DNA of 64,000 nt from an uncultured Actinomycetes bacterium (GCA_963743275.1 CAVUPB010000011.1:72153-136152), one strand, 5' to 3'; positions 22,824 through 55,847 are shown, numbered from the stretch's first letter. Notes: a model not told the origin generated them from the sequence alone. Numbers and translations are program-made.

Positions 22824-22930
22824 GCAAAGTTGGGGTCAGACCCCAACTTTGCACGCGCGAGACGACGCGGGACACCAGAGCGCCCGTGCACAGTTGGGGT
22901 CTGACCCCAACTTGCTGACCCCAACGTGCA
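22824..22930. repeat. Palindromic repeat cluster 1 (two 29-nt units plus an extra half-arm)
   Basis: GCAAAGTTGGGGTCAGACCCCAACTTTGC (22824-22852, perfect), GCACAGTTGGGGTCTGACCCCAACTTGC (22888-22915) and an extra GACCCCAACGTGCA (22917-22930). Confidence 0.9.
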
Positions 22931-22931
22931 G

Positions 22932-23210
22932 CTACGCGACGTGGAGATCGCCGCGCGCGAGGCCGTAGGCCCAGACCAGCGTCTCCGCGACCGCCTGGTA
23001 GAGCTCGGGCGGCACCTCGCCGCCGAGCTCGAGGGCGGCCAGCGCCTCGCTCAGGAGCGCGTCCTCGCGGATCGGCACGCCCGCCTCGCGCGCCGCCGCG
23101 ACGATCGCGTCGGCCACGAGTCCCTGCCCGGCCGCCACGACGATCGGGGCGGCGGCCCCGTTCGCCGTGTCGTAGCGGAGCGCTGCCGCCTTGTGCCTAC
23201 GCGTAGGCAT
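22932..23210 (-). CDS. Stand-alone FlhB C-terminal-domain-like protein (EscU/YscU/HrcU family, YlqH-like)
   Basis: 92 aa. ALRYDTANGAAAPIVVAAGQGLVADAIVAAAREAGVPIREDALLSEAL matches the FlhB cytoplasmic domain after the autocleavage site. Confidence 0.75.
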   Translation of the reverse strand: MPTRRHKAAALRYDTANGAAAPIVVAAGQGLVADAIVAAAREAGVPIREDALLSEALAALELGGEVPPELYQAVAETLVWAYGLARGDLHVA

Positions 23211-23916
23211 CGAAGGACTCGTCCACTCGCGGGCGGGCGGGACGCGCGTGCTGCGGGCGTCGCGCGGCGACGTCGACGTGCGCCGGGCCGGCGCACGCGC
23301 GCTCGAGCGCGCCCGCGAGCTCCGGCGCAGCCGCGGCGAACCGCGAGCGCGCCTCCGGCTCGACGACCACCTCGACCCTGATCGAGCCGTCGGCGAGCCT
23401 CAGATGCGCCTCGATCGGGCCGAGCGTCGCCGAATGGAGGACGAACGACGCCTCGCTGCCGGTCTCCCGGGAACGGCTGCCCTCCTCGCGTCCCTCGTCG
23501 CCGGCCACCGCCAGCGCCAGCGCGTCGCCGTTCGGGAGCGGCAGCGCGAGTCCCGGCTGCTGGAGCTCGTGCGCGACCTGGAGGAGCCTGCCGTCGCCGG
23601 CGAGCGCGAGCGCGCCCGCGGCCTGCGCCATGCGCCCGGCCGAGCCCGCCTCCGCGGCCGCTCCGGCCCCGTTCCTGATCTGCAGGAGCACCTCGTCGCC
23701 GTGGCTGCGGACGACCCGCACGGGCAGCCGCTGCCCGGGCGCGAGGCCGGCCGGCAGCTGCACCGAGAGCAGGATCCCCGCGAGCGAGATCACGCCGCGC
23801 CCGCCGTTCTGCGGCGCGGCGTCCACGCGCACCACGATGTCCGCACCCGGACGCAGCGCGAGCTCTTCGAGCAGCGCTCCGGCGGCGACCTGGCGGGCGA
23901 GGGTGGTGACTTCCAT
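23197..23916 (-). CDS. Second FliK-like protein (Flg_hook-type C-terminal domain)
   Basis: ASFVLHSATLGPIEAHLRLADGSIRVEVVVEPEARSRFAAAAPELAGALERA resembles the FliK C-terminal domain. It overlaps the downstream FlhB-CTD-like gene by 14 nt. The start is ATG 23916 or TTG 23952. Confidence 0.55.
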   Translation of the reverse strand: MEVTTLARQVAAGALLEELALRPGADIVVRVDAAPQNGGRGVISLAGILLSVQLPAGLAPGQRLPVRVVRSHGDEVLLQIRNGAGAAAEAGSAGRMAQAAGALALAGDGRLLQVAHELQQPGLALPLPNGDALALAVAGDEGREEGSRSRETGSEASFVLHSATLGPIEAHLRLADGSIRVEVVVEPEARSRFAAAAPELAGALERACAGPAHVDVAARRPQHARPARPRVDESFDAYA

Positions 23917-23917
23917 C

Positions 23918-23944
23918 TCAAGTTCGCGAGGTACGTGCCGACGA
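23918..23944 (+). promoter_or_regulatory. Sigma-28-type promoter for the flgF-flgG...fliC unit
   Basis: TCAA-N15-GCCGACGA, 45 nt upstream of the flgF ATG. Confidence 0.45.
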
Positions 23945-23979
23945 CTCGGCAACGGAAAGGGCAGTCCCCGCTCTCTCCG

Positions 23980-25599: not shown

Positions 25600-25603
25600 T
25601 CCC

Positions 25604-26418: not shown

Positions 26419-27825
26419 GTGTCGATCTCCACCTTCGTCGGCCTCGAGACCGCGCTGCGCGGACTGCTCGCCCAGCAGCAGGCGCTCGACCTCGCCGGCC
26501 ACAACGTCGCCAACGCGAACACCGCCGGCTACACGCGCCGGGTCGCGAACCTCGCCACCTCGATACCGCTCCAGGTCGCGCCGGGAATGCTGCTCGGCAC
26601 GGGCGTCAACGTCGTCTCGTACCAGCGCATCCGCGACGGCTTCCTCGACACCCAGCTGCGGGCGCAGACGATGCTCCAGGGCGCTGCCGAGGCCAAGCAG
26701 GAGGGGCTCGGCCAGGTCGAGTCGGTGCTGAACGAGCCGTCGGACAGTGGACTCGGCAACCTGCTCGGCAAGTACTGGTCGGCCTGGCAGAACGTCGCGA
26801 ACGCGCCGGAGGACGTCGCCACCCGCCAGGCTCTCGTCGAGGCCGCCTCGAGCCTCGCCTCCGGCTTCAACTCCATCTCCTCGCAGCTCGGCACGATCAG
26901 GACGCAGACGAGCCAGGAGACCCAGCTGACGGTCGACGAGATCAACTCGGACGGCCAGGATCTCAGCAGCCTCAACAAGGCGATCTTCGACGCGACGGCG
27001 ATGGGCAACACGCCCGACGACCTGCTCGACCAGCGCGATCTCGTGCTCGACAAGCTCAGCAAGCTCGGCTCCGTCAGCACGACCGACAACGGCGACGGGA
27101 CGATCAAGGTGACGTTCTCGGGCGTCACGCTCGTCGACGGGACGACCCAGCACGTCGTGAGCGAGAGCGGCGGCACGCTGTCGAACGACATGGCCGTGCC
27201 GGAGACCGCCGCGCTCGGCGCGACGACGGGCAAGCTCGGCGCCCTCGTCGCCCTGCGCGACGTGACGCTGCCGGGGTACGCCGCGCAGCTCGACTCGATC
27301 GCCGCGACGCTGATCACGCAGACGAACGCCCTGCAGGCCGGCGGCGTCGACGTGAACGGGGTCACGCAGACCGGGGGCTACGGCCTCGACGGCTCGACGG
27401 GAGTCGCGTTCTTCTCGGGCACGAATGCGGCGACGATCGGCGTGAGCGTGACCGCGGCCAAGATCGCAGCCGCCTCGGCGTCGGGGAAGCCCGGCGACAA
27501 CACGAACGCGCTCCGGATCTCCGACGTCGCGTACGACAAGACGCTCGCCCCGCTCGGCGGCGCGACGATCGACGACGCCTACTCGACGCTCGTCACCACG
27601 ATCGGCTCCGCCTCCGAGGGCGCCACGCGCGCGGTCGGCAACGCGGGCGCGCTCGTCGCGACGCTCACGAACCGGCGCGACTCCATCTCGGGCGTCTCGA
27701 TGGACGAGGAGATGACGAACCTCATCAAGTTCCAGCAGGGCTACCAGGCGGCCGCCCGCGCGCTGACGACGATGGACGACGTGATCGAGCTCCTGATCAC
27801 CCGCACCGGGAGGGCCGGACTATGA
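26419..27825 (+). CDS. flgK: Flagellar hook-associated protein 1 FlgK
   Basis: MSISTFVGLETALRGLLAQQQALDLAGHNVANANTAGYTRR and C-terminal VSMDEEMTNLIKFQQGYQAAARALTTMDDVIELLI. Confidence 0.9.
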   Translation: MSISTFVGLETALRGLLAQQQALDLAGHNVANANTAGYTRRVANLATSIPLQVAPGMLLGTGVNVVSYQRIRDGFLDTQLRAQTMLQGAAEAKQEGLGQVESVLNEPSDSGLGNLLGKYWSAWQNVANAPEDVATRQALVEAASSLASGFNSISSQLGTIRTQTSQETQLTVDEINSDGQDLSSLNKAIFDATAMGNTPDDLLDQRDLVLDKLSKLGSVSTTDNGDGTIKVTFSGVTLVDGTTQHVVSESGGTLSNDMAVPETAALGATTGKLGALVALRDVTLPGYAAQLDSIAATLITQTNALQAGGVDVNGVTQTGGYGLDGSTGVAFFSGTNAATIGVSVTAAKIAAASASGKPGDNTNALRISDVAYDKTLAPLGGATIDDAYSTLVTTIGSASEGATRAVGNAGALVATLTNRRDSISGVSMDEEMTNLIKFQQGYQAAARALTTMDDVIELLITRTGRAGL

Positions 27826-28706
27826 CCGATCGGATCACGAACGCGATGACGTCGCGGACCGTGATGTCGGACATCCAGAGCGTCTTCGCGCAGCTCGCGA
27901 AGACCCAGGCGAAGCTCTCTTCGGGCAAGCAGCTGACCAAGCCCTCGGACGATCCGTTCGGGACGAGCCGCGCGCTGCTCTACCGCGCGGGCCTCGAGGC
28001 GAACAGGCAGTACCAGGCCAACACGGCCGACGCCTCCGCCTGGCTCGGGGCCACCGACACCGCGCTCAGCCAGATGGGCAGCGACGCGAACCGCGCGCGC
28101 GATCTCATCCTCCAGGCCGCGAACGGCACGCTCTCGCTCTCCCAGCGCGGCACGATCGCCTCGGAGCTCGACCAGATCGCCGAGTCGATCAAGTCGGCTG
28201 CGAACACCCAGTACGCCGGGCGCTACATCTTCTCCGGCTCGGCGACGACGACGGCGCCGTTCTCGGCCTCGGGTGCCGACACCTACCTCGGCAACTCGGA
28301 CTCGATCAGCCGCGAGATCGGCCAGAACATCCAGGTGCCGATCAACGTCACGGGCGACGCGGTGGCGACCCCGCTGCTCGCGGCGATCCGCCAGGCCGCC
28401 GTGGACATGCGCGCCGGCGGCACCCCCGCCAACCTGAGCACCGTCGACCTCGCGGCGATGGACGCCGCCAGCGACACGATCCTGACGACGCGCGCGACGG
28501 TCGGCGCGCACACGAACCGCCTCACCGCCGCGAGCGACCGGCTGCAGCAGCTCGAGCAGGCGCAGACGCAGCAGCTCTCCGACACCGAGGACGCCGACGT
28601 CGCCCAGACGATGATCGATTTCTCGAATCAGTCGGCGGTCTACCAGGCCGCGCTCAAGGCCGGCGCGAACCTGATCCAGCCCTCGCTCCTCAACTTCCTC
28701 AAATAG
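27822..28706 (+). CDS. flgL: Flagellar hook-associated protein 3 FlgL
   Basis: ATGA overlap with flgK. MTDRITNAMTSRTVMSDIQSVFAQLAKTQAKLSSGKQLTKPSDDP and a flagellin-like C-terminus. Confidence 0.85.
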   Translation: MTDRITNAMTSRTVMSDIQSVFAQLAKTQAKLSSGKQLTKPSDDPFGTSRALLYRAGLEANRQYQANTADASAWLGATDTALSQMGSDANRARDLILQAANGTLSLSQRGTIASELDQIAESIKSAANTQYAGRYIFSGSATTTAPFSASGADTYLGNSDSISREIGQNIQVPINVTGDAVATPLLAAIRQAAVDMRAGGTPANLSTVDLAAMDAASDTILTTRATVGAHTNRLTAASDRLQQLEQAQTQQLSDTEDADVAQTMIDFSNQSAVYQAALKAGANLIQPSLLNFLK

Positions 28707-29521: not shown

Positions 29522-30337
29522 ATGGGACTTCGCATCGAGACCAACATCGAAGCGATGGATGCGCATCGCAACTTGCTCGCCACGTCGACGAAGATCTCTC
29601 AGTCGATGTCGCGGCTCAGCTCCGGCTACCGCATCAACAAGGCGGCGGACGACGCCGCCGGCCTCGCGATCAGCGAGAAGCTGCAGACGCAGGTCGGCGG
29701 CCTCAACCAGGCGCAGCGCAACGCGCAGGACGCCGTCTCGCTCGTGCAGACGGCAGAGGGCTCGATGAGCGAGGTGCAGTCGATGCTGCAGCGCGTTCGC
29801 GACCTCGCCGTGCAGTACAACAACGGCACGCTGTCGGCCTCCGACAAGGCCTCGATCACGAACGAGGTCACGCAGCTCTGCGACGAGATCGCACGCATCG
29901 CCTCGCAGACGAAGTTCAACGGCATCTCGCTGCTCACCGGCGCCGGCGTCATCAGCTTCCAGATCGGCGCCAACGACGGCGAGACGATCAGCGTGTCGAC
30001 GCGCGACATGTTCGGCGCGAGCTCGACGTATGACGTCAACTCCGCGCTGTTCACCTTCGGCGCGACGGTCACGCTGGCCTCGATCGACGCGGCGATCGAC
30101 AACATCTCGACCGCGCGCTCGACGTTCGGCGCGGTGCAGAACCGCCTCGAGCACACGCTCAACAACCTCGCGATCTACTCGGAGAACCTGAGCGCCTCCG
30201 TGAGCCAGATCAAGGACGTCGACATGGCGGCCGAGATGGTGAACTTCACGAAGCTGCAGATCCTGCAGTCGGCCGGCACCTCGATGCTGGCGCAGGCGAA
30301 CAGCGCTCCGCAGTCCGTGCTCAAGCTGCTCGGCTGA
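29522..30337 (+). CDS. fliC: Flagellin (271 aa), copy 1
   Basis: N-terminal LSSGYRINKAADDAAGLAISEKL and C-terminal FGAVQNRLEHT...DMAAEMVNFTKLQILQSAGTSMLAQANSAPQSVLKLL. It follows the fliW-csrA-flagellin order seen in Bacillus. Confidence 0.95.
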   Translation: MGLRIETNIEAMDAHRNLLATSTKISQSMSRLSSGYRINKAADDAAGLAISEKLQTQVGGLNQAQRNAQDAVSLVQTAEGSMSEVQSMLQRVRDLAVQYNNGTLSASDKASITNEVTQLCDEIARIASQTKFNGISLLTGAGVISFQIGANDGETISVSTRDMFGASSTYDVNSALFTFGATVTLASIDAAIDNISTARSTFGAVQNRLEHTLNNLAIYSENLSASVSQIKDVDMAAEMVNFTKLQILQSAGTSMLAQANSAPQSVLKLLG

Positions 30338-30440: not shown

Positions 30441-30467
30441 TCAACTGCGACCGCCGCCGGCCGATTA
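30441..30467 (+). promoter_or_regulatory. Sigma-28-type promoter spaced for a leaderless CHAP-hydrolase mRNA
   Basis: TCAA-N15-GCCGATTA, with 8 nt to ATG 30476. Confidence 0.55.
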
Positions 30468-43923: not shown

Positions 43924-46900
43924 TTGACTGTGCCGATCGTCTCTGCCCCCTTCGCCGGCCTCGACGAGATCGCCGAGCCGTATGCGCTCCTGCTCGCGCC
44001 CGGCGCCGAGGTGAGCGCCGAGGCGATCGCGGAGCTGCGGGCGACGCTCGACGCGAATCCCGCCGCGGGCCTCGTCGGGGCCCGGCTCGCCGGGCCCGAC
44101 GGCCTGCTCCGGCAGGCCGGCGGCATCGTCGCGAGCGACGGCTCGATCTGGAGCTACGGCCACGGCCGGCAGGGCGACGACCCGCGCTACCTGCACGCGC
44201 GGGAGGTCGACTGGGTCTCGACGGACTGCGCGCTCGTGCGCGTCGCCGCGCTGCGCGCCGCCGGGGGCTTCGATCCCGCGCTCGCCGGCGAGGAGCGCGA
44301 CGCCGATCTCGCGTTCGCCCTGCGCCGGGCCGGCTATGCGGTCGTCTACCAGCCGTTCGCCGAGGCGGTCGTCCACGACCAGGCCGCCGAGACCGCCGAC
44401 GCCGCGGCCACCTGCGAGCTCAGCGTCATCATGCCGACCCACGATCGGGCGGAGCTGCTGCGCGACGCGCTCGAGAGCCTCGTGGGCCAGAGCGTCGCGC
44501 GCGACCGCTTCGAGGTCGTCGTCGTCGACGACGGCTCGACCGACGGCACCGAGCAGGTCTGCGCCGAGCTCTCCGAGCGGCTCGACCTCCGCTACGTCCG
44601 GATCGCGAGCTCGGGCATCGCCGCGGCCAAGAATGCCGGCATTCGCGCGGCGCGCGGCGCCATCCTGCTGTTCCTGGACGACGACGACGTGGCCGATCCG
44701 GGCCTGCTCGCGGAGCACCTCCGCGTGCACGCCGAGCGGCCCGAGGAGCACGTCGCGGTGCTCGGCTACACGACGTGGGGCGACTGGCTCGACGTGACGC
44801 CGCTCATGCACTTCGTGACCGACGTCGGCCACTACCTGTTCGCCTACAGCGACCTCGAAGACGGCCAGTCGCTGGACCACACCTACTTCTGGGGCGGCCG
44901 GAGCTCGTGCAAGCGCTCGTTCCTCCTGCGGCGCGGGCTCTTCAACCCGGCCTTCACGTTCGGCTCGGAGGACATCGAGCTCGGCTACCGGCTCTCCCGC
45001 TACGGACTCGAGGTCGTCTACGCCGCCGGCGCGATCAGCCGGATGAACCGGTCCGTCACGCTCGACGAGTTCTGCCGGCGCGTCGAGCGCCAGGGCCGTT
45101 CGCAGCTCGTCTTCTCGCGCCTGCACGCCGACCCCGGCGTCCAGACGTGGTGCGGCGTGGAGGCCGCCGCGGAGCGCTGGGCTGCGGTCGCGGCGGATCT
45201 CGACGCCCGTCTCGCTCGCGCCCGCGAGATCGAGGGTGCGCGCAGCGAGGAGTTCCACGCGCTGCTGTGGGGCATCTTCGACGCGCTGAAGCTGAAGGGG
45301 ATCGCCGAGGCTGCGAGCGAGGACGAGCAGGTCGCGCGGCCCGCGGCGCTGCGCCACGAGGCGCCGGGTGCCGCGCTGCGCGCCAAGTGGGCCGAGGAGC
45401 TGCGCGCGCAGACGGCGCCCGAGCACGAGCTGATGCGGGCGGCCGCCAACCGCGCGCCCGGCAGCCGGATCTTCGTCGCCGATCTGCTGCTCCCCGCCTA
45501 CACGCGCGCCTCCGGTGCGCGACGGATGTTCGAGTTGCTGCGCCTGCTCGCCGCCGCGGGTCACGCCGTCACGTTCGTCGCCGCCGACCCCTCCGACGGG
45601 CCGCGCTTCGTCGACGAGCTGCGCCGGCTGGGGATCGAGACCTACGCCGGCGACCCCGAGCGGGCGCTGCTGCTCGGGCGCTCCGTCGAGGCGCCGCACC
45701 TCGATCTCGGCGAGCTCCTGGCCGGGAGCGACTTCGATCTCGCGCTGCTCAGCCTGTGGTACGTGGCCGAGCGCTACCTCGAGCCCGTGCGGCGCTACGC
45801 GCCACGGGCGCGGATCGTGGTCGACACGGTCGACGTGCACTACGTCCGCGAGCAGCGCCATGCCGAGCTCGTGGGCGACCCGCTGCTCGCGCGCGGGGCA
45901 GCCGAGACGCGCCTGCGCGAGCTCGGCGTCTACGCGCAGGCCGACGCGCTCGTCGCCGTCACCGACAACGATGCCGACGGGATCCGCGCCGCGCTTCCCG
46001 AGGCCGAGATCCACATCGTCGGGAACATCCACGACGTCGCCGAGGCGTCGCCCGGGCCGGCGGGGCGCCAGGGCCTGCTCTTCGTCGGCAACTTCCTGCA
46101 TCGCCCGAACCCCGACGCGGTGATCTGGCTGCAGCGCGAGGTCATGCCGCTCGTCTGGGACGAGGAGCCGGATGCGACGCTGACGATCGCCGGGTTCCGG
46201 CCGACGGCCGAGGTACGGGAGCTCGCCGGCCCGCGCGTCGACGTCGTCGGCCACGTGCCCGACATGCAGCCGCTGCTCGACGCGCACCGCATCTCGGTCG
46301 CACCGCTGCGCTTCGGCGCAGGGATCAAGGGCAAGGTGTGCGAGGCGCTCGCGGCGGGACTCCCCGTGGTCACCACCGGCGTCGGGAGCGAGGGGATGGG
46401 CCTCGCCGAGGGCCACGACGTGCTGCTCGAGGCCGACGACGCGGAGGCGTTCGCCGCCGCCATCCTGCGGCTGCTCCGCGACGACGCGCTGTGGGCGCGG
46501 CTTGCCGCCGGCGGCCGTGCCTATGTCGAGCAGCAGCTCAGCTCGCAGGCGGCCGCGAAGCGGCTCGAGCGGCTGGTCGAGAGCGAGCGGGCCCGCAAGG
46601 CCGACGCGGAGCTGACATCGATCGTCGTGCTCGCGCTCGACAACGCCGAGCTGACCGGCGAGTGCCTCGACTCGATCGCCGCGCACACCGCCGAGCCCTA
46701 CGAGATCGTGCTCGTCGACAACGGCTCGGGCCCGGAGGCCGCGGATCTCTTCGCGCGCTGGGCGCGCGAGCGCGACGACCTGCGCGTGGTGCGCAACGCG
46801 GTCAACCTCGGCTTCGCCGGCGGCAACAACCAGGGACTCGCCCTCGCCCGCGGTGGCGCCGTCGTGCTGCTCAACAACGACACCGTCGTCACCGACGGCT

Positions 46901-49836
46901 GGCTCGGGCGCATGCGCGCGGTGCTCGAGCGCGAGGCCGGCGTCGGAATCGTCGGCCCGGTCACGAATCGGATCTCGGGCCCGCAACAGGTCGACGACGC
47001 CGTCTACGAGACCCCGCAGGAGCTTCACGCGTACGCGGCGGAGCGAGCGCTCGCACATGCCGGCCAGACCGCCGAGACGCTGCGCGTCGTCGGGTTCTGC
47101 ATGCTGATCAGGCGCGAGGTCGTCGATTGCATCGGCGGGCTCGACGAGCGCTTCGGCGCCGGCAACTTCGAGGACGACGACTTCTCCCTGCGCGCCGCGG
47201 CCCTGGGGTTCGGGGCCCGGATCGCGCTCGACGCGTTCGTCCACCACGCCGGCAGCCAGACGTTCGCCGCGGCGGGCATCGACCACCACCAGGCGATGCT
47301 GCGCAACTGGACGCTCTTCAAGGAGAAGTGGTCGATCCCGGCGGCGACGTCGATCGCCGAGCCCTACGCCGTCTCGCGTGAGACGGTGCTGGCCCGCTCG
47401 TGCGTCGTGCCGCTGCCCGCGATCGGGCGCTTCCACCGGCCCGAGGGGAACCTCTGGCGCGAGGCCGACGACAGTCGCGTCCTCGCCGCGGCCGCCGATG
47501 CGATCGAGGTCGGCCGCGTCGAGGCGCTCGCCGATGCCTTCGCCGAGGCCGCGCGATGGCTCGACCCGCACCGCCGCTACCAGACCCGCCGCCGCCTCGC
47601 CGAGCTGGTGCTCGACGCGCCCAAGCGGGGCGAGAGCGACTGGATGACGCTGTTCGCCGCCGGCGCGGAGGAGCTGACCGCCGTGCTCGAGGAGGAGCCG
47701 CGCGAGCCGATCCTGCTGAACTATCTCGGCGTCCTCCTCTACGAGCTCGGTGACCTGCGCACCGCGGAGTCCCTGTTCCGGGCTGCGTTCCGGCTCGACC
47801 CGGCGCTCGGACAGGCCCGGGAGAACCTCGAGGCCGCACGGCGGCTGCGCCGCGCGCACACGCTCGGCGCCCCGCGCGGCGCGTTGGCCGCGCGGGTGCG
47901 GGCGCTCGCGCCGCGCGCGCGTCGCCTGGCGGCTGCGGCGAGGCCGGTGGAGGGGTTGACGGTGTCGCTGTGCATGATCGTGAAGGACGAGGAGGAGTTG
48001 TTGCCGGCCTGTCTGGAGGCGGCGCGGGGTGCGGTCGACGAGATCGTGGTGGTCGATACGGGTTCGTCGGATCGCACGGTGGAGATCGCGGAGTCGTTTG
48101 GTGCGAAGGTCGTGTCGTTTCCGTGGAACGGGTCGTTTGCGGATGCGCGGAATGTCTCGATCGAGCATGCGACGGGCGATTGGATCATGTATCTGGACGC
48201 CGACGAGCAGCTTGCTGCGGGCTCGGCCGCAGAGTTGCGCTCGCTGCTCGGCAAGACCTGGCGCGAGGCCTTCAATCTCGTCGAGACGAACTTCACCGGC
48301 GGCGAGGGATCGGGGGAGTCGGTCGCCCACCTCGCGCTGCGCGTCTGGCGCAACCGGCCGGAGTACCGCTTCGCGGGCCGCATCCACGAGCAGAAGACGC
48401 AGTCGATGCCGAACTACCTGCCCGAGCGGTTCGAGACCACGACCGTGCAGATCTCCCACTACGGCTACCTCAAGAGCCGGATCTCGGCGAAGGAGAAGTC
48501 GCAGCGCAACATCGAGCTGCTCGAGGCGCAGGTCGAGGAGCGGGGGCTGAACGCCTTCTCCGCGCTCAACCTCGGCACCGAGTGGATGCTCGTCGGCGAG
48601 CAGGCGAAGGCGCGGGAGTACCTGGAGCAGTCGTGGACGATGCTGCGACGGCAGCCGGCGTGGCAGCGCCAGCCATGGGCCCCGATGCTGCTCTCGCGGC
48701 TCGCGACCGTCCGCCGCGAGCTCGGCGACCTCGCGGGCGTGCGCGCCCTCGTCGCCGAGGGCCTCGCGATCTATCCGGATCACACCGACCTCGTCTTCAA
48801 GCTCGCGCTCTGCGCCGTCGACGAGCGCGACTGGGCGGGCGCCGAGGTGCATGCCCGCCGCTGCCTCGCGCTCGGAGATGCGCCCGCCGCCTATTCGGGC
48901 AACGTCGGCGGCGGAACGTACCTCGCAATGGCGCTGCTCGGCCAGCTGAGCGAGGTCCAGGGGCGCCTCGACGAGGCCGAGGCGCACTACCGCCAGGCGC
49001 TCGCGGCGCATCCCTCGTTCGTCGCGCCCGCGCTGCCGCTCGCGACGCTCATGTTCCGCCGCGGCGCGGCGCCGGCCGAGGTCGAGGCGGCGCTGCCGGC
49101 CGGCCGGACGAGCGCGCTCCTGCTCGCGGCGAGCGCCTGCTTCGAGGCCGGCCATGCCCCCGAGGCGGCGGCGTGGTTCGCCCGCGTGCTCGACGAGCAG
49201 CCCGAAAACGGCGCCGCGCGCGTCGGGCTCGTCGAGTCCCTGCTCGCCGAGCGCCGCTACGACGAGGCGGTCGCCGAGGCGCGCCTGCGGGGCGACGGCT
49301 CGGCCGTCGCCACGAAGCTCGCCGCCGCCGAGCTCTTCATCCACGGGCTGCGGGCCGACGCGGCAGCGCTCGGAGCCGCACTCGAGACGTTCGACGGGAC
49401 CGTGCCCGAGGCCGCGCTCTTCGGCGCCTGGCACGGCCTGCTCGCCGGCGCTCCCGTACCCGATGTGCTGCCGGCAGAGCTGTTCGGCACGGTCGTCACG
49501 ATGCTCGAGGCGCTCCTGCGCGTCTCGGAGTTCCAGGCCTTCGAGACCCTGCACGGGCTGTTCACGCGCATCGACGTCGCTCCCGCGCTGCGCTCCGACG
49601 TCCTCGCGACGGTCTACTTCCGGCGCGGCTATCTGGATTCGGCGGCGGACGAATGGATCGCCTCGGTCGAGGCGGAGCCGAGCGCCGGCGCGCTGCTCGG
49701 CCTCGCGCACGTCGCGCTCGCCAAGGACCTGCCCGACGACGCCGCCGTGCTGCTGGACGAGGCGCTGGAGCTCGAGCCCGGCAACACGGACGCCTCGGCC
49801 CTGCGCGACGCGCTCGCCGACAAGGTGGCGGCGTGA
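43924..49836 (+). CDS. Giant multidomain glycosyltransferase (about 1970-2000 aa): GT-A fragment, GT2, GT4/GT1, GT2, helical linker, GT2 and a TPR-like tail
   Basis: LSVIMPTHDR...VVVDDGSTDGT...LFLDDDD (GT2). FVGNF...GIKGKVCEALAAGLPVVTT (GT4). SIVVLALDN...VLVDNGS...LLNNDTVV...GNFEDDD (GT2). SLCMIVKDEEELLP...VVVDTGSSD...MYLDADE (GT2). The start is uncertain: the ORF track gives 43828 inside the repeat, with TTG 43924 or GTG 43930 preferred. Confidence 0.8.
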   Translation: MTVPIVSAPFAGLDEIAEPYALLLAPGAEVSAEAIAELRATLDANPAAGLVGARLAGPDGLLRQAGGIVASDGSIWSYGHGRQGDDPRYLHAREVDWVSTDCALVRVAALRAAGGFDPALAGEERDADLAFALRRAGYAVVYQPFAEAVVHDQAAETADAAATCELSVIMPTHDRAELLRDALESLVGQSVARDRFEVVVVDDGSTDGTEQVCAELSERLDLRYVRIASSGIAAAKNAGIRAARGAILLFLDDDDVADPGLLAEHLRVHAERPEEHVAVLGYTTWGDWLDVTPLMHFVTDVGHYLFAYSDLEDGQSLDHTYFWGGRSSCKRSFLLRRGLFNPAFTFGSEDIELGYRLSRYGLEVVYAAGAISRMNRSVTLDEFCRRVERQGRSQLVFSRLHADPGVQTWCGVEAAAERWAAVAADLDARLARAREIEGARSEEFHALLWGIFDALKLKGIAEAASEDEQVARPAALRHEAPGAALRAKWAEELRAQTAPEHELMRAAANRAPGSRIFVADLLLPAYTRASGARRMFELLRLLAAAGHAVTFVAADPSDGPRFVDELRRLGIETYAGDPERALLLGRSVEAPHLDLGELLAGSDFDLALLSLWYVAERYLEPVRRYAPRARIVVDTVDVHYVREQRHAELVGDPLLARGAAETRLRELGVYAQADALVAVTDNDADGIRAALPEAEIHIVGNIHDVAEASPGPAGRQGLLFVGNFLHRPNPDAVIWLQREVMPLVWDEEPDATLTIAGFRPTAEVRELAGPRVDVVGHVPDMQPLLDAHRISVAPLRFGAGIKGKVCEALAAGLPVVTTGVGSEGMGLAEGHDVLLEADDAEAFAAAILRLLRDDALWARLAAGGRAYVEQQLSSQAAAKRLERLVESERARKADAELTSIVVLALDNAELTGECLDSIAAHTAEPYEIVLVDNGSGPEAADLFARWARERDDLRVVRNAVNLGFAGGNNQGLALARGGAVVLLNNDTVVTDGWLGRMRAVLEREAGVGIVGPVTNRISGPQQVDDAVYETPQELHAYAAERALAHAGQTAETLRVVGFCMLIRREVVDCIGGLDERFGAGNFEDDDFSLRAAALGFGARIALDAFVHHAGSQTFAAAGIDHHQAMLRNWTLFKEKWSIPAATSIAEPYAVSRETVLARSCVVPLPAIGRFHRPEGNLWREADDSRVLAAAADAIEVGRVEALADAFAEAARWLDPHRRYQTRRRLAELVLDAPKRGESDWMTLFAAGAEELTAVLEEEPREPILLNYLGVLLYELGDLRTAESLFRAAFRLDPALGQARENLEAARRLRRAHTLGAPRGALAARVRALAPRARRLAAAARPVEGLTVSLCMIVKDEEELLPACLEAARGAVDEIVVVDTGSSDRTVEIAESFGAKVVSFPWNGSFADARNVSIEHATGDWIMYLDADEQLAAGSAAELRSLLGKTWREAFNLVETNFTGGEGSGESVAHLALRVWRNRPEYRFAGRIHEQKTQSMPNYLPERFETTTVQISHYGYLKSRISAKEKSQRNIELLEAQVEERGLNAFSALNLGTEWMLVGEQAKAREYLEQSWTMLRRQPAWQRQPWAPMLLSRLATVRRELGDLAGVRALVAEGLAIYPDHTDLVFKLALCAVDERDWAGAEVHARRCLALGDAPAAYSGNVGGGTYLAMALLGQLSEVQGRLDEAEAHYRQALAAHPSFVAPALPLATLMFRRGAAPAEVEAALPAGRTSALLLAASACFEAGHAPEAAAWFARVLDEQPENGAARVGLVESLLAERRYDEAVAEARLRGDGSAVATKLAAAELFIHGLRADAAALGAALETFDGTVPEAALFGAWHGLLAGAPVPDVLPAELFGTVVTMLEALLRVSEFQAFETLHGLFTRIDVAPALRSDVLATVYFRRGYLDSAADEWIASVEAEPSAGALLGLAHVALAKDLPDDAAVLLDEALELEPGNTDASALRDALADKVAA
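47920..48273 (+). repeat. 354-bp block 100% identical to 51219-51572 (copy 1)
   Basis: Out-of-frame ORFs 47970.. and 51269.. (and 48029.. and 51328..) start with identical peptides at a constant offset of 3299 nt. The 5' boundary is sharp. Confidence 0.9.
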
Positions 49837-52800
49837 GCCTGCGCGTCGTCTCCGTCCTGCCCGGCGCGGAAGCGCAGGCGACCGGGCGGGAGAGCATCGC
49901 GGAGCCGCTCGTCTCCATCGCGATCCTGACGCTGAACGGCAGCGAGCACACGCGCGCGTGCCTCGAGAGCATCGAGCGCTCGACGGCGGAGCCGTACGAG
50001 CTGCTGCTCGTCGACAACGGCTCCAGCGACGGCACGGTCGAGCTCCTGCGCGACTACGCGGCGACGCGCTCGCACGTCCGGCTGGTGCTGAACGGCGCGA
50101 ACCGCGGCTTCGCGGGCGGCAACAACCAGGCGCTCGCGCTCGCGCGCGGCGAGTACGTCGTCCTGCTCAACAACGACACGATCGTCACGGACGGCTGGCT
50201 CGGGCGGCTCATCGGCGCGCTCGAGAGGACGCCGGGCGCGGGCCTCGCCGGTCCCGTGTCCAACTACGTCGCCGGGCCACAGCTCGTCGAGGCCGGCTAC
50301 GCGAGCGTCGGCGAGGTCGCGCCGTTCGCACGCGCCTGGGCCCGCGCCCACGCCGGCGCGGTCGAGCCCGTTGCCCGTCTGATCGGCTTCTGCCTGCTGC
50401 TCCGGCGTGAGGTGGTCGAGGCGGTCGGCGCGCTCGACGAGTCCTTCGGCGCCGGCAACTTCGAGGACGACGACCTCTGCCTGCGCGCTCGCGCGGCGGG
50501 CTTCGGCTGCGTGATCGCGCGCGATGCGTTCGTCCATCACACGGGCAGCCAGACGTTCATCGGCGAGCGGATCGACTACGGCGCCAGCCTCGTGCGCAAC
50601 CGCATGGTCTTCGAGCGGAAGTGGGGGTGCTCGCTCGACGCCCTCTGGGATCGCGGCCTGGCCGCAGTCGAGCCGGAGCGGCTCGAGCGCCTGCGCCACC
50701 TGCCGCTGCCCGCGCACTCGCTGCCGGAGTCGCAGGCGGGCGCCGCCGGCGATCAGCTGCGCGGCGAGCTCCGCGTCGAGGATCTTCTCGTGCGCGCCCG
50801 CGCCGCGGTGCTCGGGCACGACCTCCGGGCCGTGCGCGAGCGCTTCGCCGAGCCCGCCGGCTGGGACGAGGAGCAGCGTGCCTACCAGGCGGTGCGCCAC
50901 CTGACCGAGCTCGTGCTCGCGACCGGGGCGGCGATCCGCGACGAGGGCTGGATCGACCTCTACGTCGCGGCTGCCGAGGGCCTGCTCGGGGTGCTCGAAC
51001 GGGAGCCGTCCGAGCCGGTGCTGCTCAACTTCGCCGGGATCCTGCTCTACGAGCTGACCGAGCTCGAGTCCGCCGCCGCGCTCTTCGAGGCGGCGCTCCG
51101 GCTCGACCCGTCGCTCGACGAGACGGCCGGGAACCTCGCTGCGGCCCGTGACCTGCTCGCGCGCGAGGACCGGCCGCGTCTCGCGCACTACGGGCTCGCC
51201 GCCCTCGCCGACCTCGGCCGTCGCCTGGCGGCTGCGGCGAGGCCGGTGGAGGGGTTGACGGTGTCGCTGTGCATGATCGTGAAGGACGAGGAGGAGTTGT
51301 TGCCGGCCTGTCTGGAGGCGGCGCGGGGTGCGGTCGACGAGATCGTGGTGGTCGATACGGGTTCGTCGGATCGCACGGTGGAGATCGCGGAGTCGTTTGG
51401 TGCGAAGGTCGTGTCGTTTCCGTGGAACGGGTCGTTTGCGGATGCGCGGAATGTCTCGATCGAGCATGCGACGGGCGATTGGATCATGTATCTGGACGCC
51501 GACGAGCAGCTTGCTGCGGGCTCGGCCGCAGAGTTGCGCTCGCTGCTCGGCAAGACCTGGCGCGAGGCCTTCTACCTCGTCGAGACGAACCACACGGGCG
51601 GGGACGAGGCGGGGACGGCGGTCGCCCACCCGGCGATGCGCATCTTCCGCAACCGCCCCGAGTACCGCTTCGAGGGCCGCATCCACGAGCAGAAGTCGCG
51701 GCTGATGCCGACGTTCCTGCCGGAGCGGTTCGAGACCACGACCGTCCGGGTCGAGCACTTCGGCTACCTCAAGAGCCGGGTCGTCGGCCGCGACAAGTCC
51801 CGGCGCAACCTCGAGCTGCTCGCGCGCGAGGTGGAGGAGTCGCCCAGCCCGTTCGCGTCGTTCAACCTGGGCTCCGAGTATCAGATGCTGAGCGACTGGC
51901 AGCGCGCCGCCGGCCACTTCGACGACGCCTGGCGCGAGCTGCGCCGCGAGGGCGAGTGGCACACGGCGGGCTTCGCGCCGATGCTCGCCGCGCGCACCGC
52001 CCGCGCCCACCGCGAGTGCGGGCGGATCGAGAAGGCGCGCGACGTGCTCGCCGAGGCGGTCGCGCTGATGCCCGACTACACCGACCTCCACTTCGAGCTC
52101 GCGCTCTGCGCGCAGGCGACGGGCGAGCGGGCCGAGGCCGAGCGGCTGCTCCGGCACTGCCTCGAGATCGGAGACGCACCGCCGCGCTACGCGGCGACGG
52201 TCGGCACGGGCTCGCATCTCGCGCTCGGCGTCCTCGCCGAGCTGGCCGAGGCGCGCGGCGACGATGCCGAGGCGATCGCCCTCTACCGGCGCGGCCTCGA
52301 GCTGCGGCCCGCCTTCACGGCGACCGTGCTGCCGCTCGCGAAGCTCCTGCTCGAGAACGGCTCGACCCCCGCCGAGCTGTCCCGCGAGCTCCCGCTCGAA
52401 CGTCCGTCGGCGGCGCTGCTGACGGCGACCGCCTACCTCGAGAGCGGCCACGCGCAGGCGGCCGAAGAGCTCTTCCGGCAGGTGCTCGCCCGCCGTCCGG
52501 GAACGCCTGCGGCACGCATGGGCGTGCTGCAGGCGCTGCTCGGCCAGCGCCGCTACGCCGAGGCCGCCGCGGAGGCCGCGAGCGAGACGGCCGAGGCGGA
52601 GACCGCGTCGCTCGCCGCCTCCACGGGCATGTTCGCGTGCGCGGCGCTCGGCGCCCCGGCGCTGCTCGCCACGGCGATCGAGCGCGCGGAGCGGCTCGCT
52701 GTCGCAGACGGCGAGCTCGAGTTCTACCGGGGGTGGGAGGCGGCTCTCGGCGGTGCACCGCTCGGCTCCCTGCCCGCGTCGGCGCTCGAGCCCGCGCTCG

Positions 52801-53156
52801 GCGCGCTCGAGGCGCTGCTCCGCGTGCGCGAGTTCGACGCGTTCGGGCGGCTGGTCTCCGTGTACGAGTGCATCGATGCTCCGCTCGAGGAGCGCCGGGA
52901 ACGACTCGCCCAGCTCTACCTGCGCAGCGGCTACGCGGACTCGGCCGAGGACGAGTGGCGCCGCGGTGCGCTCGACGCGGATTCGCTCGTCGGGCTCGCC
53001 CAGGTCGCGCTCGTGCGCGAGCAGCCCGGCGAGGCGGCCGCGCTCGCAGGCAAGGCGCTCGACCTCGACCCGGCCTCGAAGACGGCCCGCAAGCTCGTGT
53101 CGGTTTTGACCCGATCGGGGGATACGGCCTCAATCTTGGGCTCGACAGGTCGATGA
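49833..53156 (+). CDS. Multidomain glycosyltransferase (1107 aa): GT2, helical linker, GT2 and a TPR-like tail. It is a paralog of the C-terminal half of the previous gene.
   Basis: GTG overlaps the upstream stop (GTGA). VSIAILTLNG...LLVDNGSSDGT...LLNNDTIV...GNFEDDD, then SLCMIVKDEEELLP...VVVDTGSSD...MYLDADE, and a TPR-like C-terminus. Confidence 0.85.
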   Translation: MSLRVVSVLPGAEAQATGRESIAEPLVSIAILTLNGSEHTRACLESIERSTAEPYELLLVDNGSSDGTVELLRDYAATRSHVRLVLNGANRGFAGGNNQALALARGEYVVLLNNDTIVTDGWLGRLIGALERTPGAGLAGPVSNYVAGPQLVEAGYASVGEVAPFARAWARAHAGAVEPVARLIGFCLLLRREVVEAVGALDESFGAGNFEDDDLCLRARAAGFGCVIARDAFVHHTGSQTFIGERIDYGASLVRNRMVFERKWGCSLDALWDRGLAAVEPERLERLRHLPLPAHSLPESQAGAAGDQLRGELRVEDLLVRARAAVLGHDLRAVRERFAEPAGWDEEQRAYQAVRHLTELVLATGAAIRDEGWIDLYVAAAEGLLGVLEREPSEPVLLNFAGILLYELTELESAAALFEAALRLDPSLDETAGNLAAARDLLAREDRPRLAHYGLAALADLGRRLAAAARPVEGLTVSLCMIVKDEEELLPACLEAARGAVDEIVVVDTGSSDRTVEIAESFGAKVVSFPWNGSFADARNVSIEHATGDWIMYLDADEQLAAGSAAELRSLLGKTWREAFYLVETNHTGGDEAGTAVAHPAMRIFRNRPEYRFEGRIHEQKSRLMPTFLPERFETTTVRVEHFGYLKSRVVGRDKSRRNLELLAREVEESPSPFASFNLGSEYQMLSDWQRAAGHFDDAWRELRREGEWHTAGFAPMLAARTARAHRECGRIEKARDVLAEAVALMPDYTDLHFELALCAQATGERAEAERLLRHCLEIGDAPPRYAATVGTGSHLALGVLAELAEARGDDAEAIALYRRGLELRPAFTATVLPLAKLLLENGSTPAELSRELPLERPSAALLTATAYLESGHAQAAEELFRQVLARRPGTPAARMGVLQALLGQRRYAEAAAEAASETAEAETASLAASTGMFACAALGAPALLATAIERAERLAVADGELEFYRGWEAALGGAPLGSLPASALEPALGALEALLRVREFDAFGRLVSVYECIDAPLEERRERLAQLYLRSGYADSAEDEWRRGALDADSLVGLAQVALVREQPGEAAALAGKALDLDPASKTARKLVSVLTRSGDTASILGSTGR
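51219..51572 (+). repeat. 354-bp block 100% identical to 47920-48273 (copy 2)
   Basis: As for copy 1. It encodes RRLAAAARPVEGLTVSLCMIVKDEEELLP...LLGKTWREAF in both genes. Confidence 0.9.
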
Positions 53157-53561: not shown

Positions 53562-54967
53562 CCCTCAGCGTCGCGAGCCAGAGCATCAGCGGCCTCGCCT
53601 CGGGGCTCGACACGGCCTCGATCATCAGCTCGCTGATGACGATCGAGCAGCGCCCGCAGGCTCGCATCCAGCAGAAGCTGGTCGTCGAGCAGGCGCGCCA
53701 GGCGGCGCTCAAGGACGTGCTCTCGCAGCTGGGCGCCCTCAAGGCCGCCTATCAGGGGGTCACCGATCCGGCGGCCTGGGCCGACGTGCAGACCGTCAGC
53801 TCGACCGACGACGCGCATCTGTCGGCCACGCGCACGGCCGGCGCGGCCGCCGGCGCCTATGCCGTCGCGATCTCGCAGCTCGCGCGCGCCAACCAGTACA
53901 CGGCCTCCGGTGCGACCACGGCCGCCGCCGACGACGTCATCCACCTCACCGTCGCGGGCACGACCAGCGACGTCGCGATCGCCGCGGGCGACACGCTCGA
54001 TGCGATCGCAGCGAAGATCCAGGGCGTCGGCAACTCGCCCGTGTACGCCTCGGTGGTCGGCGGGCAGCTCGTGATCTCCGACCGCGCCACGGGGGCGGCG
54101 GCGAGCATCTCGTCGATCACGACCAACGGCACGTCCGGACTCTCGTTCGCCGAGACGCGCACGGCGCAGGATGCGGCCTTCACGGTCGACGGCGTCGCCC
54201 ACACGAGCGGCTCGAACGTGGTGACCGATGCGATCGCCGGGCTGACGCTGACGCTGAAGGGCCAGACGACCGCGCCGGCGACGATCAGCGTCGGCGCGCC
54301 GGCGGTCGACAGCACCGCGCTCCAGCAGAAGATGACGGCGTTCGTCACGCAGTACAACACGACGATCGGCTCCATCCTCGACAAGCTCAACGAGCCCGTG
54401 GTCGCGTCGCCGCAGAACGACGCCGACCGCGCCAAGGGCGTCCTCAACGGCGACAGCTCGCTCCAGGCGCTGCTCTCGAGCGTCCGCAACGCCTTCAGCG
54501 ACCTCGTCTCCGGCCGGCCTCCGGGGCTGCAGTCGATGGCGCAGGTCGGCATCTCGACCGGCGCGACGACCGGCGCGGGCTCGCTGAACGCCGACGCGAT
54601 CGACGGCAAGCTCGTCTTCGACTCGGGCCGCTTCGCGACCGCGATGGCGAGCGATCTGAACGGCGTCAAGGCGCTCTTCACGAACCCGACCGGCAGCTAC
54701 GCCAGCGAGGGGCTCGCGCAGCGCCTCAACCGCATCCTCACGCCGTGGACCGCCGGCAGCGCCTCGAACGGCCTGCTCAACACACGGATCGACGGCGAGT
54801 CCGCGACGATCACCTCGCTGCAGGCCGACGCTGCCGCGTGGACGCCGCGGCTCGCGCTCAAGGAGCAGATGCTCAAGGCGCAGTTCGCGGCGATGGAGAC
54901 GGCGCTCTCGCAGGCGCAGTCCCAGAGCCAGTGGCTCGACGGCCAGCTCGCCCAGCTCGGCAAGTAG
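53558..54967 (+). CDS. fliD: Flagellar filament cap protein FliD
   Basis: ATGA overlap with flaG. ISGLASGLDTASIISSLMTIEQRPQARIQQK and C-terminal LKEQMLKAQFAAMETALSQAQSQSQWL. Confidence 0.9.
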   Translation: MTLSVASQSISGLASGLDTASIISSLMTIEQRPQARIQQKLVVEQARQAALKDVLSQLGALKAAYQGVTDPAAWADVQTVSSTDDAHLSATRTAGAAAGAYAVAISQLARANQYTASGATTAAADDVIHLTVAGTTSDVAIAAGDTLDAIAAKIQGVGNSPVYASVVGGQLVISDRATGAAASISSITTNGTSGLSFAETRTAQDAAFTVDGVAHTSGSNVVTDAIAGLTLTLKGQTTAPATISVGAPAVDSTALQQKMTAFVTQYNTTIGSILDKLNEPVVASPQNDADRAKGVLNGDSSLQALLSSVRNAFSDLVSGRPPGLQSMAQVGISTGATTGAGSLNADAIDGKLVFDSGRFATAMASDLNGVKALFTNPTGSYASEGLAQRLNRILTPWTAGSASNGLLNTRIDGESATITSLQADAAAWTPRLALKEQMLKAQFAAMETALSQAQSQSQWLDGQLAQLGK

Positions 54968-54994
54968 CGCTCCCCCGATCCGACCCGAGGTGTC

Positions 54995-55435
54995 ATGAAC
55001 CCCTACGCGAGCGCCAGGCAGGCCTATACCGAGTCGACCGTGATGACCGCGTCGCCCGAACAGCTCGTCGTGATGCTCTACGACGGCGCGATCCGCTTCC
55101 TCCGCCAGTCGGCGGAGGCGATGCGGGCGGGCAACCGCGAGCTGTCCCGCAACCGGATGAGCCGCGCGGAAGAGGTCATCGACGAGCTCAACTACTCGCT
55201 CGACCTGAGCTACGGCGAGGTGCCGCAGAACCTGCGGAGCATCTACCTGTTCGCGAAGCGGCAGCTGATCCGCGCCAACCTCGACGGCGATGCCGAGTGC
55301 ATCGACCGCGTCGCCCGGATGCTCGCCGACCTGCGCGAGTCGTGGGTGACGATCGCCCGGCGCGCCGAGGACGGCAACGCTGCGGAGGCCGGGCAGGCCG
55401 TCGGCGCCGGGCTGCGCGACGGGCTCGCCGCGTGA
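54995..55435 (+). CDS. fliS: Flagellin-specific chaperone FliS
   Basis: YASARQAYTESTVMTASPEQLVVMLYDGAIRFLRQS...IYLFAKRQLIRANL. Confidence 0.9.
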   Translation: MNPYASARQAYTESTVMTASPEQLVVMLYDGAIRFLRQSAEAMRAGNRELSRNRMSRAEEVIDELNYSLDLSYGEVPQNLRSIYLFAKRQLIRANLDGDAECIDRVARMLADLRESWVTIARRAEDGNAAEAGQAVGAGLRDGLAA

Positions 55436-55737
55436 GCTACGAGCGCCTGGCCGAGCTCGCCCTCCGCGAGGAGCAGCTCGTGGCCGGCGAGCGCTGGAGC
55501 GAGCTCGTCGAGCTCCAGGCAGAGCGCGACGAGACGATCGCGGCGCTGCCGAGCACGGCCGGCCTGGTCGACCTCTCGCTGCTCGAGCATGCCCTGCTCC
55601 GCTCGCGCGCGACCGAGCGGGCGCTCGGCGCCGAGCTCGCCCGCGTGGGCGGCGAGCTCGCGGCGGTGCGGCAGGGAAGGCGCGCGCTCGTCGCCTACGG
55701 CGGCGAGCTGGACGCCCGGCTCGACGCGCGCGCCTAG
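55432..55737 (+). CDS. Small coiled-coil protein (101 aa) after fliS, a FliT/FlgN-like chaperone candidate
   Basis: GTG overlaps the fliS stop. Helical and Glu/Leu/Arg-rich. Identity rests on position only. Confidence 0.4.
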   Translation: MSYERLAELALREEQLVAGERWSELVELQAERDETIAALPSTAGLVDLSLLEHALLRSRATERALGAELARVGGELAAVRQGRRALVAYGGELDARLDARA

Positions 55738-55750
55738 AGCCGGCGGCCAC

Positions 55751-55847
55751 GCAACGTCGGGGTCAGACCCCGACGTTGCGCAATGCACGATTGGGGTCAG
55801 ACCCCAATCGTGCGGACCGCAAAGTTGGGGTCAGACCCCAATGTTGC
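55751..55847. repeat. Palindromic repeat cluster 4 (three 29-nt units)
   Basis: GCAACGTCGGGGTCAGACCCCGACGTTGC (55751-55779, perfect), GCACGATTGGGGTCAGACCCCAATCGTGC (55785-55813, perfect) and GCAAAGTTGGGGTCAGACCCCAATGTTGC (55819-55847). Confidence 0.9.

Follow-up and report, generated by a model that had tools for sequence, protein, structure and literature searches.

We analyzed a 64,000-nucleotide (nt) stretch of DNA from an uncultured Actinomycetes bacterium (hereafter the window; all coordinates count from its start), in which short palindromic units lie between the genes of a flagellar region. With a probability of roughly 0.78, we conclude that these units are hairpin repeats of the repetitive extragenic palindrome (REP) type in a Gaiellales-like actinobacterium, tied to a Y1 (HUH) transposase of the REP-associated tyrosine transposase (RAYT) kind or the TIRYT kind (tyrosine transposases linked to terminal inverted repeats). 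An exact and one-mismatch search of the window for the core GGGGTCWGACCCC gave 10 matches, nine of them exact and one, GGGGTCGGACCCC, with a G at its center (Table 1). The mean expected by chance is 0.08 matches, and none of 100 dinucleotide-preserving shuffles reached 10. Eight units have the complete form GCA-N5-core-N5-TGC, and four of them, each with N5 arms unlike those of the others, are perfect palindromes of 29 nt. To these add two half-units and a divergent unit of 31 nt. Tandem units are spaced 34-54 nt apart in the same orientation, with 5- to 10-mer linkers containing GGWCC in clusters 2 and 4, and unit flanks read GGTCC, GGACC, or GCG. Gene calls came from a codon log-odds model, for which clear open reading frames (ORFs) served as the training set, and gene names from Pfam. 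Because these calls leave only ~7% of the window intergenic and all five unit sites are intergenic, P is ~2e-6. An earlier reading of the sequence alone (the sequence-only reading) had described at least nine units in strictly intergenic clusters, four perfect copies whose arms change together, and GG(T/A)CC often 3' of a unit. All of this holds, the last for five of the nine units, and so does the outer GCA...TGC. Not noted in that reading were the missing base in the right arm at 22888-22915, the two half-units, and the divergent unit.

The family extends far beyond the window. A scan for GCA-N5-GGGGTCWGACCCC with one genome per species returned at least 114 loci, and a metagenome scan with the full pattern returned at least 120, mostly soil and rhizosphere contigs; pooled, the two scans gave at least 157 distinct units. 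Fetched loci used in the comparisons below carry labels of the form L###. Among the loci listed, full palindromes came mainly from metagenome-assembled genomes (MAGs) labelled Gaiellales, Thermoleophilia, Solirubrobacteraceae, or "uncultured Actinomycetes," and in the same genome scan the bare core, differently flanked, recurred in Halomonas, Burkholderiales, and further groups. The FliS protein of the window shares 84-90% identity with proteins that their sources label Gaiellales, from which we infer that the organism is a Gaiellales-like member of the Thermoleophilia. Across all loci, gene 3' ends adjoin units twice as often as 5' ends, and divergent spacers hold few units (6/80). A 3'-end excess together with rarity in divergent spacers is a pattern typical of REPs (PMC3733652). 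Twenty-six of 127 units overlap an ORF call, some of these calls being spurious. Searched for in the literature, the exact 13-mers and 11-mers turned up only as unrelated primers. We also noted that the 13-nt core, its arms being different, is densely clustered in Halomonas genomes (L026, L018, L087, L104, and L057), for example 14 cores within ~2.3 kb in L026, and that a second arm type, GAAAA..-core-..TTTTC, stands beside the GCAAC.. type in the same contigs of nine loci (L004, L007, L012, L040, L086, L152, L179, L210, and L239).

To examine the arms position by position, we oriented the at least 157 pooled units by their center base and counted base pairs. Pairs u4/26, u5/25, and u6/24 are Watson-Crick in 92, 90, and 88% of units, with 3-4 pair types each, compared to 42-73% with shuffled partners. 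The two positions adjoining the core pair in only 60% and 47%, and a C.A, C.T, or A.A step recurs there in the dominant soil subfamily. Pairing continues beyond the GCA/TGC foot: positions -1/+1 are Y-R in 67% of units versus 44% after shuffling, and a weaker signal reaches about -5/+5, so that the stem extends about 2-5 bp past the foot. In an alignment of 100 units from outside the window (A2), 80.4% of cells are paired versus 70.0% after shuffling, and none of 500 shuffles matched this value; the covariation score of the same units is 0.259 versus 0.100 for shuffled and 0.04-0.10 for slid controls. Among the units listed there are 47 different N5 arms. A covariance model built solely from these 100 outside units matched all nine units of the window (E = 8.6e-13 to 4.8e-05). 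The sequence-only reading had argued for selection on a hairpin and had proposed a covariance model and a statistical test of it. Covariation is borne out on 100-157 independent units and supports selection on a hairpin and not on a linear sequence.

Single units fold as single-stranded DNA with -10 to -22 kcal/mol, and unit clusters form very stable RNA folds (z-scores -7 to -11). Only unit 6 was folded as a single RNA unit, with -25.7 kcal/mol on the minus strand versus -17.5 on the plus strand. The dominant subfamily is oriented, cTGAC-GCAACAAC-GGGGTC-A-GACCCC-(A/T/G)(A/T)TGTTGC, and the center base is therefore not free there. We considered strand-specific selection on RNA and rejected it: counted in the center-A orientation, mismatches show no G.T excess over A.C (28 versus 47, driven by the conserved C.A step), so the G.T pattern of three window units is not general. 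Readings as CRISPR, integron attC sites, or DNA uptake sequences were dropped given the irregular spacing, the lack of cassette ORFs, and the covarying arms.

In related loci, the same units bracket transposase genes. ORFs between pairs of cores encode proteins with the motifs YH(V/I)..RGN, NH(Y/F)HL, FQ.R(Y/F), and Y(I/V)..NPV, which match Pfam Y1_Tnp (PF01797) above its cut-off (E = 1.6e-11 to 2e-7) and score 80.3, 78.3, and 62.6 bits with the NCBIfam model NF047646, "REP-associated tyrosine transposase" (cut-off 80). Two of the four proteins scanned, those of L176 (239 amino acids, aa) and L233 (280 aa as scanned), carry a C-terminal helix-turn-helix (HTH) domain of the HTH_23/HTH_28/HTH_38 type; L141 gave no HTH match. 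Their sole match in the PDB, TnpA(REP) of E. coli (4ER8), is not significant (E = 0.77), with the HUH, FQxR, Y..NP, and WPxS motifs aligned. By tblastn, Y1 genes adjoin units in L176, L141, L233, L146, L129, L218, L057 (Halomonas getboli), L024, and L019 (a Spirochaetaceae MAG), and a homolog also lies between or next to units in L239. In L176, L141, L233, L146, L129/L218, and L239, the Y1 gene is bracketed by units of this family in inverted orientation, with one unit 30-91 nt upstream of the ATG and an inverted unit that overlaps the stop codon or follows it within ~100 nt. The suggestion in the sequence-only reading that the units are REP/BIME-like (BIME, bacterial interspersed mosaic element) is supported by these RAYT-type genes. 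The transposase clade comprises 5577 proteins at E <= 1e-20, many of them named RayT by the Joint Genome Institute. Two details of these loci deserve mention: in L176 (~1010-1026), the transposase gene ends inside the downstream unit and its TGA stop is the core center, GGGGTC-TGA-CCCC; and in L057 (~3760-4530), cores bracket a Y1 homolog that is 41% identical to the L176 protein.

Related transposase loci also differ at the apex of their units. L146 and L176 have the same upstream gene end, and three MAG contigs (L239, L240, and L241) have a common neighborhood of an amidohydrolase gene, the transposase gene, a convergent tetratricopeptide repeat (TPR) gene, and ThiF. The L239 transposase gene is flanked by GAAAAAAC-GGGGTCAGACCCC-AAATTTTC, of the GAAAA.. 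arm type, and an inverted partner. In L240 (9896-9924 and ~10702-10730) and L241 (6153-6181), the flanking unit keeps its arms and has the apex AGTGCCAGGCACT instead of GGGGTCAGACCCC, with both halves changed, and the downstream unit has a hybrid apex, AGTGCCTGACCCC. A search of all loci for the alternative apex AGTGCCWGGCACT found it only beside the L240/L241 transposase. This change could reflect co-evolution of enzyme and repeat, or decay.

We next compared the family with described repeat systems. REPs have been sorted into GTAG- and CGTC-tagged super-families, and TIRtrons, that is, RAYT-like genes (TIRYTs) flanked by inverted repeats sharing GGGGWSAS, have been described, with some of the flanking repeats self-complementary and some moderately abundant families in dimers or clusters (Di Nocera et al. 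2013; PMC3733652). Quentin et al. (2018; PMC6006769) equate TIRYTs with TnpA(REP) subclass 2.1, with C-terminal HTH_23, HTH_28, or Bac_DnaA_C domains, and report no REP-like sequences next to subclass 2.1 genes. The word "Actinobacteria" is absent from the text of both papers. The present units are short extragenic repeated palindromes (9-10 in 64 kb, all intergenic, in a family of at least 157), and a Y1 gene flanked by inverted units is found in related contigs, the window itself giving no match. The core starts with GGGGTCAG in all units, which fits GGGGWSAS, and this together with the HTH of two proteins (HTH_23/HTH_28 in L176 and L233) argues that the family is of the known TIRYT-repeat kind, as far as sequence can tell, in a mostly uncultured actinobacterial class. 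The likeness to TIRtrons thus extends to a RAYT-homologous Y1 gene between inverted repeats and to self-complementary, dispersed families in dimers or clusters. The differences are the host lineage, here Thermoleophilia/Gaiellales-like Actinomycetota; the repeat, here a complete 29- to 39-nt hairpin with a covarying stem and not merely a terminal inverted repeat (TIR); and the adjoining REP-like sequences that Quentin et al. did not find. The likeness to subclass 2.1 is one of domains, of motif, and of a protein longer than RayT.

E. coli REP/BIME elements with RayT (4ER8) and Pseudomonas REPINs are similar in being short, imperfect extragenic palindromes, single or clustered, past 3' ends and between convergent genes; the cognate Y1 gene is likewise bracketed by repeats, and many copies lie near stop codons. 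Unlike these elements, the present units lack an unpaired GTAG tag and are almost fully self-complementary with a 3-nt loop, and the present transposase is only distantly related to RayT. Unlike BIMEs and REPINs, they do not alternate as Y and Z REPs or form inverted doublets: by center base and model score, the units of clusters 2 and 4 share one orientation. With the TnpA of IS200/IS605 insertion sequences the enzymes share the Y1 superfamily (PF01797) and presumably the recognition of single-stranded hairpins, whereas the present units are not the ends of an insertion sequence with a transposase in each copy; they stand alone, encode nothing, and greatly outnumber the gene.

We suggest how such a system might work. 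As a single strand, each unit folds into a hairpin in which an invariant apical stem (GGGGT/ACCCC) carries a triloop, followed by a step of two loosely paired bases and by a covarying lower stem closed by GCA/TGC and continued by ~2-5 more pairs. A Y1 enzyme would recognize this single-stranded hairpin by the sequence of the constant apical GGGGTCWGACCCC and of the GCA/TGC foot and by the structure of the variable stem, and would cut and rejoin at it, with copies gained and lost over time. Copies would persist where they do no harm, namely just past stop codons, between convergent genes, or between a stop codon and the next promoter, which would be why units mark transcription-unit boundaries here. 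Once transcribed, the hairpins would probably act as 3'-end barriers or stabilizers, as a by-product and not as the cause of their sequence conservation.

Several points weigh against this reading. Mobility and enzyme recognition are argued by homology with E. coli TnpA(REP) and IS200/IS605. A tblastn search with the Y1 homologs found no transposase gene in the window, as the sequence-only reading had stated, and a cognate enzyme elsewhere in the genome is presumed. The arms in the window (..GTT/AAC..) differ slightly from those of transposase-flanking units (..CAAC/..TTG.. or GAAAA..). Classical REPs bear an unpaired GTAG or CGTC tag; the position-wise composition of the at least 157 oriented units shows neither, only a Y at -1 and an R at -2, both paired with +1 and +2. 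No target duplication or cleavage site was identified. Finally, the differences in presence between relatives, described next, could be deletions rather than insertions.

Syntenic relatives, found by blastn of the window against all fetched loci, differ in which flagellar junctions hold a unit. Between FliT and FlgB there are three units in the window, one in L137, and none in L235-L238, and the spacer is 237 nt in the window and 119 nt in the contig pairs L235/L236 and L237/L238. These are Gaiellales contigs whose FliS is 84% (L235/L236) and 74% (L237/L238) identical to that of the window. L235/L236 keep the same sigma-28-like promoter motif at flgB, 19 nt past the stop codon, and no core was found in 20 kb of flagellar genes in L235-L238. 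Conversely, a unit follows FlhB in L203 and precedes a rod gene in L223 and L157, two places without a unit in the window; past FliN, a canonical unit in L192 corresponds to the divergent one of the window. With 0, 1, or 3 units at the syntenic FliT/FlgB junction, the units are therefore not part of conserved flagellar regulation. Since the 3'-end preference holds across all loci, their boundary position reflects tolerance and not a flagellum-specific role. The special tie to flagellar operon boundaries that the sequence-only reading had seen is not supported by these comparisons: the family is spread over hundreds of unrelated gene contexts, and the 20 kb of L235-L238 are free of it.

A subset of units abuts stop codons on one side. 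In the center-A orientation, a stop triplet occupies -4..-2 in 23 of 126 units (TGA 18, TAG 3, and TAA 2 among the listed cases), and 22 of these are stops of the called upstream gene; the mirror side has six stop triplets, three of them stops of called genes (binomial P = 1.6e-4). Three units in the window start 1-2 nt past a stop codon (21694, 22822, and, on the minus strand, 22932). TGAC as a strict insertion target is weakened by the TAG and TAA stops at the same 1-nt distance. We entertain, tentatively and as a minority view, that either the transposase or selection sets hairpins on the sense strand right behind stop codons; taken together with its -1 pyrimidine, the unit abuts the stop in 22 of 126 cases, versus 3 on the mirror side. 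If so, a Y1 transposase family would target the ends of coding regions or supply hairpins that cells use to control translation termination and mRNA 3' ends, and the cross-phylum GGGGTCWGACCCC apex would be the code by which one RAYT/TIRYT clade, co-evolving with its repeat, recognizes it, as the AGTGCCAGGCACT apex in L240/L241 hints.

The same bias could be read as exaptation, each hairpin hindering the terminating ribosome or fixing the mRNA 3' end and so tuning the upstream gene. Ribosome stalling has been reported for REPs of E. coli that lie no more than 15 nt from a stop codon (summarized in PMC12306157), and both the 22 versus 3 asymmetry and the three stop-abutting units of the window fit. 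Most units are not stop-adjacent, however; some of the 22 cases are orthologous and thus not independent; and an insertion preference of the transposase, or a ..GAC foot that creates a TGA, could equally produce the bias. We regard this explanation as doubtful.

U-tract-less terminator hairpins of an "I-shaped" kind have been described in Actinobacteria, and the units might be terminators or insulators of this sort, selected to separate flagellar transcription units by an RNA hairpin that stops the polymerase or blocks 3' exonucleases. Like intrinsic terminators, including the I-shaped ones, they are G+C-rich hairpins directly downstream of genes. All sites lie 3' of genes; three co-directional junctions (21736, 43839, and 55877) have the order stop codon, unit(s), sigma-28-like promoter, the units ending 8-30 nt before the -35 box; the clusters fold stably as RNA; and we found no canonical hairpin-plus-T-run terminators at gene ends in the 20-60 kb part of the window. 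That scan gave no site at any unit either, and no unit is followed by a T/U run. A terminator would require neither the invariant 13-nt apex nor the GCA/TGC foot, whereas these recur across loci and taxa and flank transposase genes, as expected of a repeat family. Close syntenic relatives lack a unit at the same junctions and keep the promoter, other sigma-28-like boundaries in the window (18782, 23918, and 30441) have no unit, and hundreds of family members stand in non-flagellar contexts. We therefore consider selection as terminators unlikely; REP-type repeats may incidentally terminate or insulate. Far less probable still is that the units are duplex operators for a dimeric regulator of the flagellar regulon, which the invariant, perfectly palindromic 13-nt core and the proximity to sigma-28-like promoters might suggest; the sequence-only reading had raised binding sites for a dimeric protein. 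Forty-seven N5 arms that vary freely yet stay complementary are a signature of single-strand pairing and not of base-specific duplex contacts. Moreover, the units lie downstream of genes, often 1 nt past a stop codon, and can be arrayed in tandem every 34 nt; the family is found genome-wide but is missing from syntenic flagellar loci.

The window is a flagellar region throughout. The sequence-only reading had placed the four clusters after the methyltransferase, fliA, an AP-like enzyme, and the gene next to fliS; gene calls and Pfam agree with it and give these flanks: methyltransferase and FlhB-C-like ORF (cluster 1), FliA and flagellin (cluster 2), sulfatase-like gene and giant glycosyltransferase (cluster 3), and FliT and FlgB (cluster 4). 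The gene order begins with FlgG-like, FlbD, MotA, MotB, FliL, and FliN, followed by the divergent unit, the methyltransferase, and cluster 1. The FlhB-C-like ORF and FliK (minus strand) come next, then rod proteins, FlgN, FlgK, FlgL, FliW, CsrA, flagellin, and a CHAP-domain protein, then FlhF, FlhA, FlhB, FliR, FliQ, FliP, and FliO (minus strand), FliA, and cluster 2. Beyond it lie a second flagellin (minus strand), two LuxR-type response regulators, the sulfatase-like protein, and cluster 3; two giant glycosyltransferases, FliD, FliS, FliT, and cluster 4; and FlgB, FlgC, FliE, FliF, FliG, FliH, FliI, and so on. Seven intergenic regions contain a motif, TCAAsnn-N12-GCCGAyaA, that resembles a sigma-28 (FliA) promoter and stands 8-98 nt upstream of flagellar genes (Table 1). 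Rfam (at gathering thresholds) and tRNA/transfer-messenger RNA scans of the window gave no matches.

Table 1. Repeat units, partial units, and sigma-28-like promoter motifs in the window (model, covariance model built from outside units; folds as single-stranded DNA)
Feature	Position	Strand	Core start	Match or basis	Description
Divergent 31-nt unit	21696-21726	+	21705	model E ~0.09	GGTGCGCCC-GGGGTCGGACCCC-GGGCGCGCC; center G, G+C-rich arms; starts 1 nt past FliN stop (TGA, 21692-21694), ends 10 nt before sigma-28-like -35 box; fold -21.9 kcal/mol
Unit 1 (cluster 1)	22824-22852	+	22832	47.1 bits, E = 7e-12	GCAAAGTT-GGGGTCAGACCCC-AACTTTGC; perfect palindrome; starts 1 nt past methyltransferase stop (TGA, 22820-22822); fold -15.1 kcal/mol
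Unit 2 (cluster 1)	22888-22915	-	22896	24.9 bits (-) vs 15.5 (+)	GCACAGTT-GGGGTCTGACCCC-AACT-TGC; right arm one base short
Right half-unit (cluster 1)	22916-22929	-		sequence inspection	TGACCCCAACGTGC; fused to unit 2; on - strand begins 2 nt past TAG stop (22934-22932) of FlhB-C-like ORF (PF01312)
Unit 3 (cluster 2)	39596-39624	+	39604	41.4 bits	GCACGGTT-core-AACCGTGC; perfect palindrome; then GGTCC
Left half-unit (cluster 2)	39635-39649	+		sequence inspection	GCAAGGTCGGGGTCT; abuts unit 4
Unit 4 (cluster 2)	39650-39678	+	39658	40.9 bits	GCAAGGTT-core-GATCTTGC; two G.T mismatches; then GGTCC
Unit 5 (cluster 2)	39689-39717	+	39697	36.5 bits	GCACGGTT-core-GGTCGTGC; three G.T mismatches; then GGTCC; fold -10.2 kcal/mol
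Unit 6 (cluster 3)	43803-43831	-	43811	50.1 bits (-) vs 39.6 (+)	center T on + strand; mismatches are G.T on - strand; 9 nt past stop codon of sulfatase-like gene, 8 nt before sigma-28-like -35 box
Unit 7 (cluster 4)	55751-55779	+	55759	49.1 bits	GCAACGTC-core-GACGTTGC; perfect palindrome; 13 nt past FliT stop
Unit 8 (cluster 4)	55785-55813	+	55793	37.9 bits	GCACGATT-core-AATCGTGC; perfect palindrome; then GGACC
Unit 9 (cluster 4)	55819-55847	+	55827	42.5 bits	GCAAAGTT-core-AATGTTGC; GGACC on both sides; ends 30 nt before sigma-28-like promoter of flgB
Sigma-28-like motif	18782-18808	+
Sigma-28-like motif	21736-21762	+
Sigma-28-like motif	23918-23944	+
Sigma-28-like motif	30441-30467	+
Sigma-28-like motif	40798-40824	-
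Sigma-28-like motif	43839-43865	+
Sigma-28-like motif	55877-55903	+

The window holds further features of interest. FlhA (FHIPEP; 32894-34944, minus strand) is split, with profile positions 1-45 in ORF 34282-34944, positions 261-655 in ORF 32894-34105, and the middle part in another frame; it is either a frameshifted pseudogene or an assembly error. In the FlhB/FlhA spacer lies a G+C-rich hairpin, GGCGCACGC-N-GCGTGCGCC (34984-35014), with a marginal match to the covariance model (E = 0.36). This spacer holds a canonical unit in the relative L203, and the hairpin may be a unit in decay or have no relation to the family. The flagellin paralogs at 29522-30337 (plus strand) and 39885-40700 (minus strand) are in opposite orientation and have the identical stretch GGCGGCGTCGTCCGCCGCCTTGTTGATGC in common (29641-29659, minus strand; 40563-40581, plus strand); a third flagellin-like gene (27822-28706) is probably FlgL. 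Two multi-domain glycosyltransferase/TPR genes of very large size (1968 and 1107 aa) lie at 43930-53156 and are conserved in L235. Within the flagellar locus they stand next to a methyltransferase and a sulfatase-like gene, and the region may be a flagellin glycosylation island.

The interpretation as REP-type repeats explains a conspicuous sequence feature without new flagellar regulation. Intrinsic terminators differ from these units in having a T-run, and the units are in addition invariant in sequence across loci and taxa, associated with transposases, and missing from orthologous junctions in relatives. Annotators can take the units as marks of gene 3' ends, and a simple covariance model suffices to mask them. 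Their orientation-specific abutment of stop codons offers a testable lead on insertion-site choice or on the effects of REPs on translation termination. The family would extend REP/RAYT-type systems to a poorly studied, mostly uncultured class (Thermoleophilia/Gaiellales). It also suggests that each GGGGWSAS "TIR" beside a TIRYT gene is the apical half of a true hairpin repeat whose stem covaries, a reading that bears on how this Y1 subclass may recognize DNA.

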